Both the position numbers and the translations under genes were made by a program. The notes beneath the pieces are model-generated. The model worked only from the letters and a program-made list of their open reading frames with translations. It did no database searches and was not told where the DNA came from. From a virus, in UHGV virus genome UHGV-1841366: 54,360 nt of DNA, one strand, 5' to 3'. This document shows positions 1 to 48,561 of the stretch, piece after piece; position 1 is the stretch's first letter, and each line of letters opens with the position of its first letter.

Positions 1-20
1 TTAAGCAACCATTCTTCACA

Positions 21-48
21 ATGCCCGGCAACACGCTGGGCATTTTTA
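21..48 (+). terminator. rho-independent terminator-like hairpin
   Basis: 9-bp stem (ATGCCCGGC / GCTGGGCAT, one G-U) with 5-nt loop followed by TTTTTA; read directly from sequence. Confidence 0.55.
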
Positions 49-84
49 TATAGACACAATCCCTTCTGACTTTAACAAACCCTA

Positions 85-97
85 AAACAATTTGTTT
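85..97. promoter_or_regulatory. palindromic motif AAACAA-N-TTGTTT (copy 1)
   Basis: Perfect 6-1-6 inverted repeat; same motif recurs at 136-148, 2561-2573, 19186-19198, 46517-46529, 48549-48561 and degenerate copies elsewhere. Confidence 0.5.
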
Positions 98-135
98 TCT
101 GCCTTTTGTTAATTGAGATAATAAGCCACATAAGA

Positions 136-148
136 AAACAAATTGTTT
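136..148. promoter_or_regulatory. palindromic motif AAACAA-N-TTGTTT (copy 2)
   Basis: Perfect inverted repeat, immediately upstream of GGAG and the ATG at 162. Confidence 0.5.
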
Positions 149-161
149 CGGAGTGGTTGAA

Positions 162-461
162 ATGTTGAACATTACCCAAGCCTACCAGGTGGCATTGATC
201 AGTTCATCTCATACATCAGAGGAAGATGCTCGCCGATTCATGATCGCAAGCAATGAGCTGGATTGGGTTTCGCAAATTGACGGCGGTTGTATTGTCCACG
301 CCGGGTTACAGGATGATGTCTGGAAAGACGACTTGCGTCGATATGGTATATCCGAAGGCGCGATTGCTAACATTCAGAAAGTACTTGATGTAGGCTTTGA
401 CTCTGTACATTTTGATTGTGGTGCGCCGGTCGTTGAAGGGCTTGAGTGCTGGAACTGGTAA
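162..461 (+). CDS. hypothetical protein
   Basis: ORF-track frame 153..461; ATG at 162 lies 9 nt after GGAG. No recognisable domain. Confidence 0.5.
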   Translation: MLNITQAYQVALISSSHTSEEDARRFMIASNELDWVSQIDGGCIVHAGLQDDVWKDDLRRYGISEGAIANIQKVLDVGFDSVHFDCGAPVVEGLECWNW

Positions 462-589
462 ATCTGCAAACAGATTCAAACCGTTGATAATGGCGGTCAC
501 AATTTGATTCTTTTCTATAAGAATCCGTTGATCGCCACTACTCCCCTTCCATATCTGCAATCACATCCTTAAATATCAATAAGTTATAG

Positions 590-1330
590 TTGTTTATACA
601 AACCAGAAAACAACTGAATAACAGATCAATGAAACCTCAACACTTTCACCCGATTTGGTCTAAAAAATTGACGTTTTCACACATCACTTCTTATACCCGC
701 AATTCTACGCAGCAGACAGCGCCACAGCGTCCAATTTTCACCACAGACGACTCAACACACTACCAACAAAAACACACGCTCAAAATCGCTCCCGTTGCGT
801 TACACAACCATATAAACAACTTATTTTCAGGAATAACAAAACAACTAAATAACACATGCGCCATTCCCAAAAACAACCAACCTCTTTATGGCAGGCTACC
901 GAAAAGACCCACCTCTTCTTCCCAGGCTACCGGACAACCAACCTAACTTTCACAGGCAATACGAAAACATTCATGCGCGCGATACCCACGACACGCCATT
1001 CCCCAAACAGCGAAGAAACACCAGAATCACTGAAACCCCAACGAAGCCTGTTACCGCAAGGATTCTCTCAATCCCAAAAGACACGAAACATAACAATCAC
1101 GGGAAACGCCATTACCCAATACACGAATAACCACAAAAGCCTTTCACACACTCCAGACAAACAACTCAAACACAATAACGAAAGGAATCGCCCACCTGCC
1201 ATTACTCCATACACGGAGAAAAACAATCACCAAAACGACGAGAACACCCCATAGAAGAACCACCGCAAAACGAACGAAACCATTTACACCGACAGAGAGA
1301 ACAACACACCCAATTCACCAACAGAATTAG
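590..1330. other. A+C-rich (G- and T-poor on + strand) non-coding region
   Basis: Hand counts on 60-nt lines give about 68-77 percent A+C. The three overlapping + strand ORFs here are explained by stop-codon depletion in AC-rich sequence. Confidence 0.6.
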
Positions 1331-1454
1331 TCGCCGTATAGAACGTTCTGGAAGGAGTGAGCATTAACGTCCATAGAGAGGTTGAGACAGATAAAACACG
1401 AAGAAAACACAACATGTATAGCGAAGAAGCCAGGTATGTATAAGTGGGGAGGGA

Positions 1455-1478
1455 AGGAGGGGTGTCGCCTCCTTTTTC
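1455..1478 (+). terminator. rho-independent terminator-like hairpin
   Basis: Stem AGGAGG / CCTCCT with 7-nt loop followed by TTTT; lies just after the A+C-rich region. Confidence 0.5.
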
Positions 1479-1545
1479 GTATTTATTCAACTCCTGATTT
1501 TATCCCCCGTAACACCCCTACGGTCAGCCTTCGGTCCATACAGGG

Positions 1546-1675
1546 GAAAGGCTGCATCCCGCTACAGAAACGGCTGGATTGCCTTCGGGGAACGGCTGGA
1601 GGCTTTCAGGGAGACGGTCGAGTTGCCTTTGTGGGTTTCGGGAAAAGGCTCGATGCCGGTTCAGGAACGGCGGCG
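1546..1675. repeat. iteron-like array, six imperfect GRAAMGGCYG repeats
   Basis: Copies start near 1546, 1567, 1589, 1610, 1642 and 1664; spacing 21-22 bp with one 32-bp step. Confidence 0.6.
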
Positions 1676-2039
1676 TACAGGTATAGCGAGAGGGAGAGTT
1701 GCGGCTACCCACCTGTAATGTGCGGGAAGAAGAGAGACGCTCACGTGCAGGTGAACTTACTTACCGCTGGATTCCCTCTGAATGCCCAGCTACAGCGTAA
1801 TTGTGCCAGACAGTCAGCGGGTCACAATCGATTTCAGTAGGTTTTCGGGGAGAGGATTATTCTGTCCACCAGCCACCTTCGGCCACTAAATCAGAATAAT
1901 GTAAAAAGTGTACTCGGTACTGAACCTGAAAAATCACTGCCAAAACCACATTCACCGGAATAAAATCCTTTTTCGCCTTTGCGTTATTGCGATAATAACA
2001 CCAACAAGAAAACAACGTGTTTAGGCAAAGGAGAAATAC

Positions 2040-2216
2040 ATGTACAGGCATCTGAATGTCAGTATCACCCTCGATGACGTTATCCACTCTCAGGATGTAG
2101 CTGGTCGCGTGGTGACGCTCATCTCTGAAGGATACAGAGAAGGGATGTTTGATTTCCATATCGAGGACAACCCAATGTCCGTCGCGTGGAACTGCACGAC
2201 GTCAGAAACAAAGTGA
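2040..2216 (+). CDS. hypothetical small protein (58 aa)
   Basis: Not in the ORF track (under 60 aa). ATG at 2040 is 6 nt after AAAGGAG; translated by hand to a TGA stop at 2214-2216; a degenerate palindromic motif lies upstream at 2010-2022. Confidence 0.4.
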   Translation: MYRHLNVSITLDDVIHSQDVAGRVVTLISEGYREGMFDFHIEDNPMSVAWNCTTSETK

Positions 2217-2226
2217 GGGTGAATAG

Positions 2227-2445
2227 ATGATTAAGATGCCTGTGATGGTTGAGGTGTGGAACGTGGATTCCCTGGCCGAGTGCCTGGATGCAGTGGGGCC
2301 GGAGCTGTATCGCAAATTGTGGTCGTTCGTCCCGGCTGAAGGGGAATCACCCAAAGGGAAGGAGATCTGGCACCTGCTCAGTGAAGATGAACAGCGGGAG
2401 CTGGTGGACGCGGTACACATTGAGTTCCCGGACGACGAAGATTAA
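2227..2445 (+). CDS. hypothetical acidic protein
   Basis: ORF track; GAGGGTG precedes the ATG; acidic C-terminus (FPDDED). Confidence 0.45.
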   Translation: MIKMPVMVEVWNVDSLAECLDAVGPELYRKLWSFVPAEGESPKGKEIWHLLSEDEQRELVDAVHIEFPDDED

Positions 2446-2560
2446 GAGTGAGGCCACCAGCACGGTGGCTTTTTGCTGTTTGCAACCTCCGGGGCAGCGC
2501 AGCGCCGTAACGCTATGCTTTGTAGCCTTTTTCTTACTGGTATTATTTACGCCATTGAGA

Positions 2561-2573
2561 AAACAAGTTGTTT
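2561..2573. promoter_or_regulatory. palindromic motif AAACAA-N-TTGTTT (copy 3)
   Basis: Perfect inverted repeat followed by ACGGAG and the ATG at 2585. Confidence 0.5.
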
Positions 2574-2584
2574 ACGGAGTTGTG

Positions 2585-2899
2585 ATGAAAAAATCATTGG
2601 TTCTTGGTCTGGACAAAGACCAGAAGAGAAAAGAGAAGCCTGCACTGGTTGCTCAATTAACTTTGCTGGACATCGTTGCCAATGGAACCTCTATTCGTCT
2701 GTTCCGTGAAACAGCGGTGTCTTTCGATAAAAACACCTTTACTCGTTATGTAATGAATGTTCGTCGCCAGCGTGGAAAAGGCTGGGTGGCATTTCAAAGA
2801 ATGTGGCCTGCACATCAGCTCGAGCTGGCTTTGATGGAAGTAAACCGCGTGGCCCAGCAAGAAATTCAGAGAGCATCAGTGATGGCAACAGCCTGGTAA
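2585..2899 (+). CDS. hypothetical protein
   Basis: In-frame internal start of ORF 2249..2899 (begins MKKSLVLGL); chosen because motif plus GGAG sit directly upstream and the longer N-terminus overlaps gene 2227..2445. Terminator follows. Confidence 0.55.
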   Translation: MKKSLVLGLDKDQKRKEKPALVAQLTLLDIVANGTSIRLFRETAVSFDKNTFTRYVMNVRRQRGKGWVAFQRMWPAHQLELALMEVNRVAQQEIQRASVMATAW

Positions 2900-2931
2900 T
2901 GTGCAAGTGGTAATTAGTCGACAGTACGACA

Positions 2932-2958
2932 GCCCCGACGTCCTTACGGGGCTTTTTT
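2932..2958 (+). terminator. rho-independent terminator
   Basis: GCCCCG / CGGGGC stem with 9-nt loop followed by TTTTTT. Confidence 0.7.
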
Positions 2959-3022
2959 GTATTGTAAGCACATACCTACGATCATAGAATAGAAAAATAA
3001 CTAATACACTACGGAGAGTGAA

Positions 3023-4061: not shown

Positions 4062-4104
4062 AGCGCCAGAAAAGCCAACGGGAGCGATTCTGGCGCTTTT
4101 TTTG
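4062..4104 (+). terminator. rho-independent terminator
   Basis: 9-bp stem AGCGCCAGA / TCTGGCGCT followed by TTTTTTT. Confidence 0.7.
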
Positions 4105-4530: not shown

Positions 4531-4782
4531 ATGAGCTATCAAATTCTGACGACGACAGCAGCCAGCATTACTGAGCTGAAAAGAAACCCTATGGGCACTG
4601 TAGCTGAAGGTGAGGGGGAGGCCGTCGCAATCCTGAACCGGAATGAACCCGCGTTTTACTGTGTCCCACCAGAACTTTATGCCTACTATCGGGAACTCGC
4701 CGAGGACGCTGAACTTAACGCGATTGCAGATGAAAGAATGAAAGAACCGGACATTGTGAAGGTTAACCTGAATGACCTATGA
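4531..4782 (+). CDS. type II antitoxin, RelB/StbD-like
   Basis: 83 aa; overlaps the downstream RelE-like gene by 11 nt; C-terminus (DAEL...VKVNLNDL) resembles the RelB C-terminus as I remember it; GAGGAGG ribosome-binding site. Confidence 0.6.
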   Translation: MSYQILTTTAASITELKRNPMGTVAEGEGEAVAILNRNEPAFYCVPPELYAYYRELAEDAELNAIADERMKEPDIVKVNLNDL

Positions 4783-5053
4783 GCTGGCATTTGAACGCAG
4801 GGCACTGAAAGAATGGCAGAAGCTCGGCCACACTGTTCGTGAACAATTCAAAAAGAAGCTGTCAGAGCGCCTGAAAAATCCACATGTCCCCGCAGCCAGG
4901 CTATATGGTCATACTGACCGTTACAAAATTAAGCTTCGCGCATCCGGTTACAGGCTCGTTTATCAGGTAATTGATGAGAAGGTTGTTTTGCTTGTCATTG
5001 CTGTAGGAAAAAGGGAAAGCAGCGAAGTCTATCACACGGCTGATACTCGTTAG
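4772..5053 (+). CDS. relE: type II toxin, RelE/ParE superfamily
   Basis: 93 aa; the stretch YKIKLRASGYRLVYQVIDEKVVLLVIAVGKRESSEVY closely matches the E. coli RelE sequence as I recall it (not database-checked). Confidence 0.7.
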   Translation: MTYELAFERRALKEWQKLGHTVREQFKKKLSERLKNPHVPAARLYGHTDRYKIKLRASGYRLVYQVIDEKVVLLVIAVGKRESSEVYHTADTR

Positions 5054-6216: not shown

Positions 6217-7143
6217 ATGAAACCAGTATTTTTGGGGCGAATTGATATTAGTGAATTGTTTTCAGTTAGAGATGGGTTCCAATATGACTGTGATTGCCTT
6301 GAACTTAATGGTCTTGAACGTGAATACAGATTGGCTATTGTGAATGATGGTAAGAAGACATTTTCTGTCGAATGTTTTGAAAATACTTACTTTAAGCAGG
6401 TGTTGAGAATAAGACAGCATGTGGAGATGTCAATTCGGGAAAACATCAAAAATAAATGTGAGTTTCTTGTGGTTAAAAATGAAGCAGATGAAATAAACTT
6501 TGTTACGTTCACTGATAGTGGTCGATTGGCTATGCTGGAGCTATTTCAGCTGATCGTTTCTAATAACAGTATAACAGAAGCCTTGAACAGTCTTTCAACT
6601 ATAGTATCAAGAGAAAGAGAAAACACTGGCGCTTTAATTGTAGAGGAGCTAGATGGAATACTCGAGAAGATCAAGAATAAAGAGCTGATTATAGAATATG
6701 GCAAGGAAAGTAGGAAAAATAATTTACATTCAGCTTTTCACTCCCCATATGTTGAGCGTTTGAATGGTTTGGCTGCTTTTGTTAATTTGGACTTTAATAG
6801 ATTTTTTAGTTCTTTTTTTACAGAGTGTGGGCTTGTTATTGTTGAGGTAAATAATGAGAACGATGTCCCCAAAATTATAGTACATTCGATGCCTGATATA
6901 TCTCTCAATGAAATTGGGGACAAACTGGAGAATTTATACGATGTAAAAAGCATGGAAGAACTCATAGAGTATCTGGCCATAAATGCGGTAGCCATGGCTG
7001 ATAATGATGTGTTTGGGGTTGGTGCACTGCATGAAGGTTTTCTTGACGCCCTTGAGCTTTACGGGACTGCTCGCTGGTTTCTGTCAGGATTAGTGGATGA
7101 TGCACCTTTACTCATCAATACAGATTATTTTTATTCCAGTTGA
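6217..7143 (+). CDS. hypothetical protein
   Basis: In-frame ATG (MKPVFLGRI) of ORF 6070..7143 preceded by GAGGAATTAAAA; the upstream part of the ORF lies in the duplicated leader. AT-rich. Confidence 0.5.
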   Translation: MKPVFLGRIDISELFSVRDGFQYDCDCLELNGLEREYRLAIVNDGKKTFSVECFENTYFKQVLRIRQHVEMSIRENIKNKCEFLVVKNEADEINFVTFTDSGRLAMLELFQLIVSNNSITEALNSLSTIVSRERENTGALIVEELDGILEKIKNKELIIEYGKESRKNNLHSAFHSPYVERLNGLAAFVNLDFNRFFSSFFTECGLVIVEVNNENDVPKIIVHSMPDISLNEIGDKLENLYDVKSMEELIEYLAINAVAMADNDVFGVGALHEGFLDALELYGTARWFLSGLVDDAPLLINTDYFYSS

Positions 7144-7346
7144 AAACAAGGCCACCACTGCTGGTGGCCTTAAATGACCATCCTGTCTCCCGCAGGCTAA
7201 AAACACCAACCTCTTACCTCCAGGCAACCGACAAACCCACCTGTTCCCGTCCGGCTACCGCAACTTTCCACTTTGACGCCTTATTCGTACAACCATAATT
7301 AACACCAACAAGAGAACAATTTGTTATTTAGAATAAGGAATCAATC

Positions 7347-7829
7347 ATGAATTTTATCGCTACTGTAAACGCACCCGCACATGGCAATATCGCTGTAACG
7401 TTCTCTGACACTGAAAAACGAGTACTTGGTGCATGGCGCGACAATGAGACGGTAGAACTGTCAGCACAAGAAAAATGCATTATTGCACGCGACATCATTG
7501 GCAATCGTCGTTACTCGCGGGTATTTGAGAAAGCGTATGTGGTAAATTCTGGGTTCGGAACGTTCGTCTTTCCGGTGCGCTCCGGGCGATTCTGCCAGTC
7601 CAAGCTGATTGAGTTCGCTACGCAGATTTCTGTCTGGATTAAAACTCAATCGTCGTTCAAATTTTCCGACGATGAAGCAGTATCGCAGGGGATGCGGATC
7701 GCCAACAATGCAATTAAATGCAAAAACATTACGTATACCGCTGGCGTTGACACATGGAGACTGTTTTGCGCTAACTTTATGCTGAATGTATACGCAAGCA
7801 ACCGCATCCACATCCTTGATGGCGTGTAA
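7347..7829 (+). CDS. hypothetical protein
   Basis: ORF track; AAGGAA ribosome-binding site; variant palindromic motif at 7314-7326 upstream; terminator downstream. Confidence 0.55.
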   Translation: MNFIATVNAPAHGNIAVTFSDTEKRVLGAWRDNETVELSAQEKCIIARDIIGNRRYSRVFEKAYVVNSGFGTFVFPVRSGRFCQSKLIEFATQISVWIKTQSSFKFSDDEAVSQGMRIANNAIKCKNITYTAGVDTWRLFCANFMLNVYASNRIHILDGV

Positions 7830-19122: not shown

Positions 19123-19185
19123 TTAATAAGACATGCCCAGATTCAATTAAACACACCAGTAAACAAGTTGGTTAATAGATGCAGT

Positions 19186-19198
19186 AAACAAGTTGTTT
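19186..19198. promoter_or_regulatory. palindromic motif AAACAA-N-TTGTTT (copy upstream of terS)
   Basis: Perfect copy; variant copy at 19161-19173; followed by palindrome GAGCGC-ATGGAC-GCGCTC and the ATG at 19239. Confidence 0.5.
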
Positions 19199-46516: not shown

Positions 46517-46529
46517 AAACAAGTTGTTT
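46517..46529. promoter_or_regulatory. palindromic motif AAACAA-N-TTGTTT (copy upstream of parA)
   Basis: Perfect copy 36 nt upstream of the parA start. Confidence 0.5.
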
Positions 46530-48548: not shown

Positions 48549-48561
48549 AAACAATTTGTTT
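48549..48561. promoter_or_regulatory. palindromic motif AAACAA-N-TTGTTT (copy upstream of helicase)
   Basis: Perfect copy 20 nt upstream of the ATG at 48581. Confidence 0.5.

Follow-up and report, generated by a model that had tools for sequence, protein, structure and literature searches.

A conserved A+C-rich, untranslated tract at the cargo border of SSU5/pHCM2-type phage-plasmids as a candidate Rho-loading zone

The virus genome UHGV-1841366, whose 54,360 nucleotides form the window analyzed here, carries near its left end a strongly A+C-rich tract (584-1354, + strand) in which C far exceeds G and which is untranslated and free of stable structure. The tract lies in a conserved non-coding locus (about 478-1720), the site where variable, lysogeny-expressed cargo genes meet conserved, repressor-controlled early lytic genes. 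Our tentative reading, to which we give a probability of roughly 40%, is that the tract is a very long loading zone for Rho and works as a transcriptional firewall between the expressed cargo and the early lytic genes. That Rho acts here, that the tract works as a firewall, and what the repeated motifs do are inferences from the features described below.

In a megablast search with 400-2100, Escherichia phage Cyrano (pLF82) was 96% identical and further E. coli phage-plasmids 90-95% identical, while the matches to Salmonella phage SSU5 and to Klebsiella phage-plasmids were less similar. From these sequence matches, the window is therefore assigned to a phage-plasmid of the SSU5/pHCM2 type. In pG749_2, an annotated plasmid with 97% identity, nearly every gene runs in the direction of the window + strand, and the genes neighbouring the tract are co-oriented with its C-rich strand.

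The original prediction had described 590-1330 as A+C-rich and unlike the rest of the window, and both the description and the coordinates proved accurate. These 741 nt are composed of A.398, C.316, G.121, and T.165, giving A+C of.714 and a C/G ratio of 2.6. Across all 741-nt segments of the window, A+C averages.498 with a standard deviation of.033. The tract is 6.7 standard deviations above this mean, and the runner-up segment reaches.582. Single 100-nt segments within the tract peak at.81, and the maximal-scoring A+C segment is 739-1323. We defined a C>G run as consecutive 78-nt segments in which C exceeds G by at least 10 percentage points. The run at 584-1354 (771 nt) is the longest on either strand of the window, exceeding the second-ranked + strand run 3.6-fold, and the tract is likewise unique within 100 kb of the 97%-identical plasmid. 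The GC skew changes sign sharply at about 1440, at a conserved G-cluster; the shift follows from the G content of 37-41% reached in a region of G-rich repeats (motif C) further downstream. No periodicity of 10.5 nt (DNA curvature, A-tract phasing) or of 3 nt (coding) was detected in the tract. The features of the locus are as follows, with conservation values taken from 26 non-redundant representatives of seven genera.

478-540, + strand: left boundary block of the conserved locus, conservation 0.85-0.94, unique in the genome
584-1354, + strand: A+C-rich, C>G, untranslated, structure-free tract, seen as a 771-nt C>G run, by its composition, and by the lack of a coding signal and of a fold
598-625, + strand: degenerate copy of the early promoter/operator module (CAGAAAACAACTGAATAAC), with a half-operator only, conservation 0.92
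655-697, + strand: promoter-like block P2, with an A-tract, a -35 hexamer TTGACG (668-673), an 18-nt spacer, and TATACC (692-697)
814-826, no strand assigned: operator-type palindrome AAACAA-N-TTGTTT, with one mismatch here and perfect in the SSU5, Klebsiella, and Cronobacter clades
873-957, + strand: motif B, three tandem units of 30-31 nt, ACC(C/A)ACCTCTT-N5-CAGGCTACCG (also written CCACCTCTT-N5-CAGGCTACCG)
995-1226, + strand: motif A, GCCATTACyyMATAyrCGGAGAAsAAC (GCCATTAC...ATACACGGAGAA), with copies at 995, 1108, and 1198 and a degenerate copy at 859
1444-1478, + strand: purine tract GGGGAGGGAAGGAGGGG and hairpin (1451-1478), followed by a T-run, closing the tract
1545-1671, + strand: motif C, five G-rich units (GGAAACGGCTGGA...) spaced by 22, 22, 31, and 22 nt

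As far as sequence evidence goes, the tract is not a gene, and the protein-coding reading is refuted. Long open reading frames (ORFs) are expected by chance here because T-poor and G-poor sequence holds few stop codons. In the ORFs 590-946, 856-1254, 888-1130, and 1382-1840, substitutions affect all three codon positions alike, with no bias in close or distant comparisons. Relatives of more than 90% identity differ by frameshifting 1-nt insertions or deletions (indels) at 592, 662, 703, 866, 920, 1140, and 1299, and indels of 1, 8, 10, 12, 21, and 31 nt separate the clades. The tract contains no pair of a Shine-Dalgarno (SD) sequence and a start codon, and ATG, GTG, and TTG together occur only 7 times in 740 nt. 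The substitutions, the indels, and the missing SD-start pair bear out the original statement that the region holds no credible gene and no ribosome-binding site. Two phage records, Cyrano (CYRAN_103 and CYRAN_104) and PhiR41_1, do annotate coding sequences in the tract, which would make the ORFs (590-946, 856-1254, and others) low-complexity proteins rich in Thr, Pro, Gln, and Asn. However, the few submitted coding sequences conflict in strand and frame between records, and the CYRAN_103 region has no measured expression in rich medium (see below). In nearly all plasmid records searched, the PLSDB gene table, which is incomplete, lists no gene under the match. We see practically no chance that these ORFs encode proteins.

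The RNA of the tract is also poorly structured. The + strand RNA of 700-1340 (641 nt) has a minimum free energy of -72 kcal/mol (z = -1.3), against -167 for its complement; the z-scores of these single-sequence folds are not significant, and neither strand differs from shuffled sequences. RNAalifold, applied to nine sub-regions on both strands with the 26 representatives, gave energies near zero except for the hairpin at 1451-1478 and for a pairing of 492-499 with 529-536 in the boundary block. The tract pairs with its G-rich tail more weakly than shuffled tracts do, and the motif C region has no significant RNA fold. The stem of the hairpin is kept in 38 variants and contains many G-U pairs, with one pair seen as GC, GU, and AU. 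Because the stem relies on G-U pairs, the hairpin is restricted to the + strand. The hairpin that the original prediction placed downstream of the tract is present at 1451-1478, with a T-run. Its proposed function as a rho-independent terminator fares less evenly. In the window, a G+C-rich stem is directly followed by a U-run, as in intrinsic terminators, and the stem is kept in relatives, but the U-tail is clade-specific: the E. coli and Klebsiella clades have a good one, the SSU5 clade a poor one.

The expression of the locus in a lysogen can be seen in a published RNA-seq table of strain LF82, which gives log2(FPKM+5) for each Cyrano gene, where FPKM is fragments per kilobase per million mapped reads (PMC9928086). 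CYRAN_102, the expressed cargo gene directly upstream of the locus, has an FPKM of about 59 in lysogeny broth (LB) and up to about 585 in macrophages, and CYRAN_103, which corresponds to 590-946 of the window, has an FPKM of 0 in LB and typically 0-5, with a maximum of about 14 in one macrophage replicate (PMC9928086). The drop from the upstream gene (FPKM about 59-585) into the tract (0-2 over 590-946) is about 30- to 250-fold, as a gene-level value from one strain in which decay and termination are not separated. In the lysogen the locus is thus silent, and expression of the early genes 3' of it is low too. No intrinsic terminator lies between CYRAN_102 and CYRAN_103, and none was found between the upstream + strand gene and P2 in 7 of 7 clade representatives. 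The drop without a terminator points to a factor-dependent agent, or to very fast decay of unprotected RNA, that removes the transcript at the entrance of the tract.

By its sequence properties, the tract functionally looks like a Rho utilization (rut) region. Its C content is well above its G content over 741 nt, whereas at least 70-80 nt of such RNA is expected of a rut site; the RNA lacks stable structure and is untranslated; and it lies in the path of transcription, with same-strand genes upstream and P2 at 668-697. A + strand transcript entering or starting in the tract would consist of nearly all A and C, could not fold, and would have no ribosome-binding site. Such C-rich, G-poor, and unfolded RNA would offer host Rho a loading substrate over about 770 nt. 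The firewall would stop read-through from upstream cargo genes that lack an intrinsic terminator of their own, and would also attenuate P2 transcripts before they reach the hairpin and the early genes. The scarcity of G and U would be explained as well, since it removes pairing, start codons, and SD sequences. The firewall reading thus accounts for the strand of the bias, the scarcity of G and U, the position at the cargo border, the missing upstream terminators, and the silence in the lysogen.

Such terminators may share motif B as a reusable module, given that the only other long intergenic C>G stretch contains it again. Outside the tract it occurs at one other place (7207-7260), which is conserved in pHCM2, SSU5, and Cronobacter.

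7173-7272, + strand: second motif-B locus, with units at 7207-7230 and 7237-7260, C.42 and G.13 over 100 nt

This place lies 3' of the stop codon of the upstream gene and of a hairpin without a U-tail (7150-7172), and it precedes the -35 element of the operator-controlled promoter of a conserved gene (7347-7829). The run that holds it, 7127-7338, is the second-longest + strand C>G run of the window. As both 584-1354 and 7127-7338 carry motif B, the two longest untranslated C>G stretches are exactly the places with motif B; shorter C>G stretches lie at operon ends in the 97%-identical relative. The motif C units are conserved in all clades. The locus could also be a two-way barrier, since the motif C region forms, on the - strand, a 215-nt C>G stretch facing the tract, and in some clades a - strand gene points into this region.

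The original prediction offered a long Rho-loading region on the + strand as one possibility. It fits most of the computed evidence, with an unfoldable and untranslatable RNA, a C excess, upstream genes without terminators, and the RNA-seq fall, but it leaves the conservation of the sequence unexplained. What goes beyond that prediction is this strong conservation, the promoter-like block, the operator, two repeat families, and a larger locus extending to about 1720.

In the tract alignment of the 26 representatives, 297 of 683 columns are conserved at 95% or more, and A+C makes up 75% of them. Even where conservation is lowest, A+C amounts to 62-64%, compared with 50% for the genome. As the bias persists even there while many columns are strongly conserved, sequence and composition are both kept. 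The conservation of the locus exceeds that of the coding sequence 3' of it. A search for homologous A+C-rich blocks, proposed along with the original prediction, was run, and downstream of P2 all true homologues have an A+C of.64-.74, although their identity to the window goes down to 58-70%. A pattern-scan contig with an A+C of.505 (L047) looks like a chance match and was discarded as a homologue. A substitution bias within clades that preserves composition was rejected, as the spectrum is ordinary and dominated by transitions, with only a modest A<->C excess.

The most conserved block of the locus is P2, at 0.95. Its hexamers are invariant and its spacer is fixed in length and variable in sequence, also in loci fetched without using P2. 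This pattern is the signature of a promoter, and transcripts from P2 would be predicted to start near 704 on the + strand. A simple promoter scanner does not list P2 because its -10 element lacks the final T. The upstream module at 598-625 stands in direct repeat with 821-857. The 13-bp palindrome AAACAA-N-TTGTTT has nine sites in the window, against 0.5 expected, and one further site has two mismatches.

85-97, 136-148, 814-826, 2010-2022, and 2561-2573: palindrome sites 1-5
19161-19173, 19186-19198, 46517-46529, and 48549-48561: palindrome sites 6-9
7314-7326: palindrome with two mismatches

The palindrome usually lies 13-14 nt past a -10 element of the GATAAT type, often extended, before small early genes, and a pair of sites precedes the operon of a terS-like gene and terminase, so that sites outside the tract closely follow the -10 elements of both early and late promoters. 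Judged from this placement, it is presumably the operator of one phage regulator, in a set comparable to the many C1 operators of P1.

Several of these observations weigh against a plain Rho-loading zone. A rut site requires composition and not a particular sequence, yet nearly half of the tract columns are strongly conserved, the tract of the E. coli clade is 3 times less variable than its flanks, and the few G residues in motifs A and B are preserved. The length of 770 nt is about 10 times what Rho needs. A passive barrier has no need of a promoter-like block and an operator of its own, and the early genes downstream have their own operator-controlled promoters. YC dinucleotides number 86 in the tract, fewer than the 97 predicted from composition. 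The RNA-seq drop could reflect fast decay instead of termination, and Rho loading leaves the conserved repeats unaccounted for. As a plain rut site does not explain the sequence conservation, the Rho interpretation is incomplete.

We considered other roles for the locus. It may be a DNA-level nucleoprotein platform, for example an origin of lytic replication (oriLyt) or an enhancer of replication or transcription, which we regard as unlikely. Repressor-controlled transcription from P2 would pass through the tract into the G-cluster and the G-rich repeats (1444-1720), where the duplex would be opened by an R-loop or by an initiator sitting on the 22-bp repeats, with motifs A, B, and C as protein-binding sites. 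The three families of same-orientation direct repeats are spaced near multiples of 10.5 bp (motif C by 22, 22, 31, and 22; motif B by 31 and 30), as are most of the larger indels between clades (12, 12, 21, 15+8, and 31 nt), but deletions of 9+6 nt and 9 nt in single representatives and indels of 3 and 1 nt are not. The conservation beyond composition and the sharp skew switch at the G-cluster would fit a platform. The lytic replicon of P1 is repressor-controlled, and an operator lies in the present locus too. The phage encodes its own DnaE, helicase, and primase (pHCM2 additionally RNase HI) and has no assigned origin, and the locus belongs to the phage core whereas the plasmid rep type varies among clades. 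On the other hand, the tract is 56% A+T, with neither an AT-rich unwinding element nor A-tract phasing at 10.5 bp, no initiator gene adjoins the locus, and the motif C copies are 60-78% alike, compared with 75-90% for the element's own plasmid iterons. Motif B is present, too, in an ordinary intergenic region 5' of a promoter, Rho, which removes R-loops, is favoured by nascent RNA rich in C, and binding sites would leave the A+C bias of the non-conserved columns unexplained. Equally unlikely in our view is a long non-coding RNA that acts in trans. It would extend over about 770 nt from P2 to the hairpin at 1478 and appear only after induction, and its naked A/C-rich body would soak up a host factor that binds single-stranded RNA. 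Candidate factors would be Rho (with anti-termination across the genome), Hfq, S1, or a toxin that cuts at ACA, such as MazF. Such an RNA would be delimited by the conserved P2 block and by the conserved hairpin at its 3' end, which share a strand, the silence in the lysogen and the operator fit a lytic-phase product, and the conservation and repetition of the motifs would suit multiple binding sites. RNase E should act poorly on RNA with so little U. However, the tract has 6 GGA in 631 nt, where 4.0 are expected, and the enrichment of ACA is mild (42 against 34). GcvB R1 pairs with the tract no better than with shuffles, and no antisense targets were found in the phage genome. Rho translocates off RNA, which makes simple titration inefficient, and the SSU5 clade lacks the U-tail of the hairpin.

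The locus may instead be a recombination linker, a crossover point at which phage-plasmid lineages swap cargo and early-gene modules, with RecA preferring the complementary G+T-rich strand. A preference of RecA for GT-rich DNA was reportedly described by Tracy and Kowalczykowski in 1996. The locus lies exactly at the border of variable cargo and conserved genes, and one plasmid is recombinant with crossovers near 870 and 1700. Yet conserved blocks of any kind gather crossovers when the DNA around them is divergent, evolvability is only weakly selected, the tract has no Chi site, and the promoter, the operator, the hairpin, and the strand-specific orientation would be left unexplained. We hold this to be very unlikely. 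A bolder idea, which we consider unlikely as well, makes the tract an active device of the lytic phase. In one version it would be an RNA-based anti-terminator switch: loss of the repressor would yield abundant A/C-rich P2 RNA, the repeated motifs would capture Rho or another host factor, and Rho-dependent termination within the phage itself, for instance at the motif-B site at 7.2 kb, would be switched off. In the other version it would be a Rho-gated lytic origin of the R-loop type, in which P2 transcription would fire an origin at the G-cluster and the 22-bp repeats (1444-1700).

More specific candidates were tried and rejected. The ops/RfaH site suggested by GGCGGTCAC at 492-500 misfits at positions 7-8 and at the pause bases T11/G12. 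Motif A is confined to this locus and cannot be a dispersed promoter motif; its four copies (a 30-nt motif) each head a degenerate unit of 90-142 nt. Motifs A, B, and C are not iterons of the plasmid Rep protein. The true iterons, at least 13 copies of TATGCTGTCAGCGGT in 21-bp phase, are unrelated and flank a RepB-family initiator gene 34 kb from the locus, in a replicon at 34135-35923 of L067 (84.1-85.9 kb of pG749_2). Replicon types across the clades are IncFIB, rep_cluster_488, and rep_cluster_763, and a search of the window revealed no other tandem array able to mark an origin. A sponge for CsrA of the Csr/Rsm type was dismissed as GGA is not enriched and hairpins are lacking, and a GcvB sponge as the pairing of R1 of MG1655 gcvB with the tract does not exceed that with shuffled sequences or with other segments. 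The search for antisense targets of the tract in the phage genome returned only operator-type matches and one borderline 14-mer (4076-4089). A type III toxin-antitoxin system like ToxI would have tandem repeats and a hairpin as here, but the ORF 1382-1840 lacks a coding signature and no toxin gene follows. The Rfam 15 covariance models gave three chance-level matches on 1-3000 (E 0.6-0.9), none inside the tract. Roles as FtsK-orienting polar sequences (KOPS), dif, pac, or centromere were dropped, with no supporting feature.

The locus is widespread. As a non-coding region of 1.2-1.5 kb, it was found by blastn in 835 PLSDB plasmids (Klebsiella 427, Escherichia 224, Enterobacter 90, Salmonella 49, Citrobacter 25, Cronobacter 9, and others), and pattern scans add about 60 IMG/VR contigs and a Buttiauxella genome, so that its hosts belong to at least seven enterobacterial genera. 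We found no description of the locus in the searchable literature. Motif B varies in copy number among close relatives, with an extra 31-nt unit at 890-895 in two of them (L034 and L035). A complete 111.6-kb plasmid from a blood isolate (L119, NZ_CP083480.1) carries IS1 within the tract at 1234-1242, with a 9-bp target duplication. As this plasmid is maintained, the tract is dispensable for plasmid maintenance. The recombinant plasmid mentioned above (L004, NZ_CP122497.1), compared with 458-2040 of the window, is window-like to about 870 and then 90-97% SSU5-like from about 870 to 1700. Past 1700 it is about 70% identical to the window and to Klebsiella types and 46% to SSU5, and its crossovers thus lie inside the locus. 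A contig labelled as a Bacillota metagenome-assembled genome (L013, JAEWTL010000044.1) has an SSU5-type locus including the hairpin block and is probably a mis-binned enterobacterial phage-plasmid contig. Two Klebsiella plasmids of 140-240 kb, not phage-sized (L010 and L024), retain only the first 330-500 bp of the locus. What remains, the boundary block, P2, motif B, and an adjoining DUF262 gene, looks like a recombination remnant.

The left boundary block contains two CCGTTGAY direct repeats and the inverted repeat GGCGGTCA (492-499) / TGATCGCC (529-536), whose arms are those paired by RNAalifold. In every clade the variable cargo genes stop just 5' of this block. In E. coli the cargo abutting it consists of the methionyl-tRNA synthetase gene and small genes; in Salmonella it is a gene of 1.2 kb, in Enterobacter one for a GIY-YIG nuclease, and in Klebsiella a DUF262 gene. 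The region of DNA metabolism and cargo lies upstream of the tract, and a block of small early genes lies downstream, followed by a regulatory region and the structural genes. All proteins encoded near the locus are of unknown function in Pfam and PHROGs. Amid the small early genes, 4531-5053 of the window holds an antitoxin/RelE-like toxin pair (phrog_2268 and phrog_1213), which is absent at that place in pHCM2. The 54 kb contain 12 Chi sites (GCTGGTGG) on the + strand and 5 on the - strand, compared with about 0.8 expected per strand, and one copy (7160-7167) is part of the hairpin at 7150-7172.

Among clinical Escherichia, Klebsiella, Salmonella, and Enterobacter, phage-plasmids of the SSU5/pHCM2 type are common, as the 835 records in PLSDB alone illustrate. 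Their cargo includes genes for resistance and defence as well as toxin-antitoxin systems. It is inserted exactly at the locus, which appears to protect the lytic genes from transcription of the cargo. The firewall reading, if right, would explain how these elements accept arbitrary expressed cargo without triggering lysis, and the tract would be a natural, portable, and very strong factor-dependent insulator. If the tract is active, it would identify the missing lytic origin or a new RNA-based switch, that is, a new mechanism for the change from lysogeny to lysis in a widespread clinical phage-plasmid family. Whichever reading holds, the locus is a conserved, unannotated, and easily testable element.

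Among known systems, the locus falls outside the Rfam families, the Csr sponge class, the ToxI-like antitoxins, and the plasmid iteron system. With iteron origins and incompatibility loci (P1 oriR/incA, R6K gamma, lambda ori) it shares same-orientation direct repeats, the 22-bp/31-bp phasing, and its non-coding nature, but its repeats are poorly alike, and it has no adjacent initiator gene and no AT-rich unwinding element. Like protein-sponge RNAs (CsrB/RsmZ, CrcZ) and sponges of small RNAs (AgvB, SroC), it is a non-coding RNA candidate with repeated short motifs. Unlike them, it shows no GGA enrichment or presentation of motifs in hairpin loops, is far longer, and is silent in the lysogen. 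Its A/C-richness resembles that of GcvB targets, without specific complementarity to GcvB. R-loop origins (ColE1 RNA II, T4 oriF/oriG, herpesvirus oriLyt) likewise have a promoter, an untranslated transcript, a G-cluster, and G-rich repeats, and the relative pHCM2 encodes RNase HI; here, however, 700 nt of C-rich RNA that disfavours R-loops separate the promoter from the G-rich part. The comparison with rut sites, such as rutA/rutB of lambda tR1 and timm in the untranslated leader of the satellite phage-plasmid P4, also has two sides. The tract is 770 nt long, against 60-90 nt for a normal rut site, and it is also A-rich. It also has a conserved sequence, two repeat families, an internal promoter-like block, and an operator, and no nut-like or boxA/boxB element was recognized in it. 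Like these rut sites, however, its sense RNA is C-rich, G-poor, unstructured, and untranslated, it has a hairpin downstream and genes without intrinsic terminators upstream, and its place is in a regulatory region of a phage, where lysogenic functions give way to early lytic ones.

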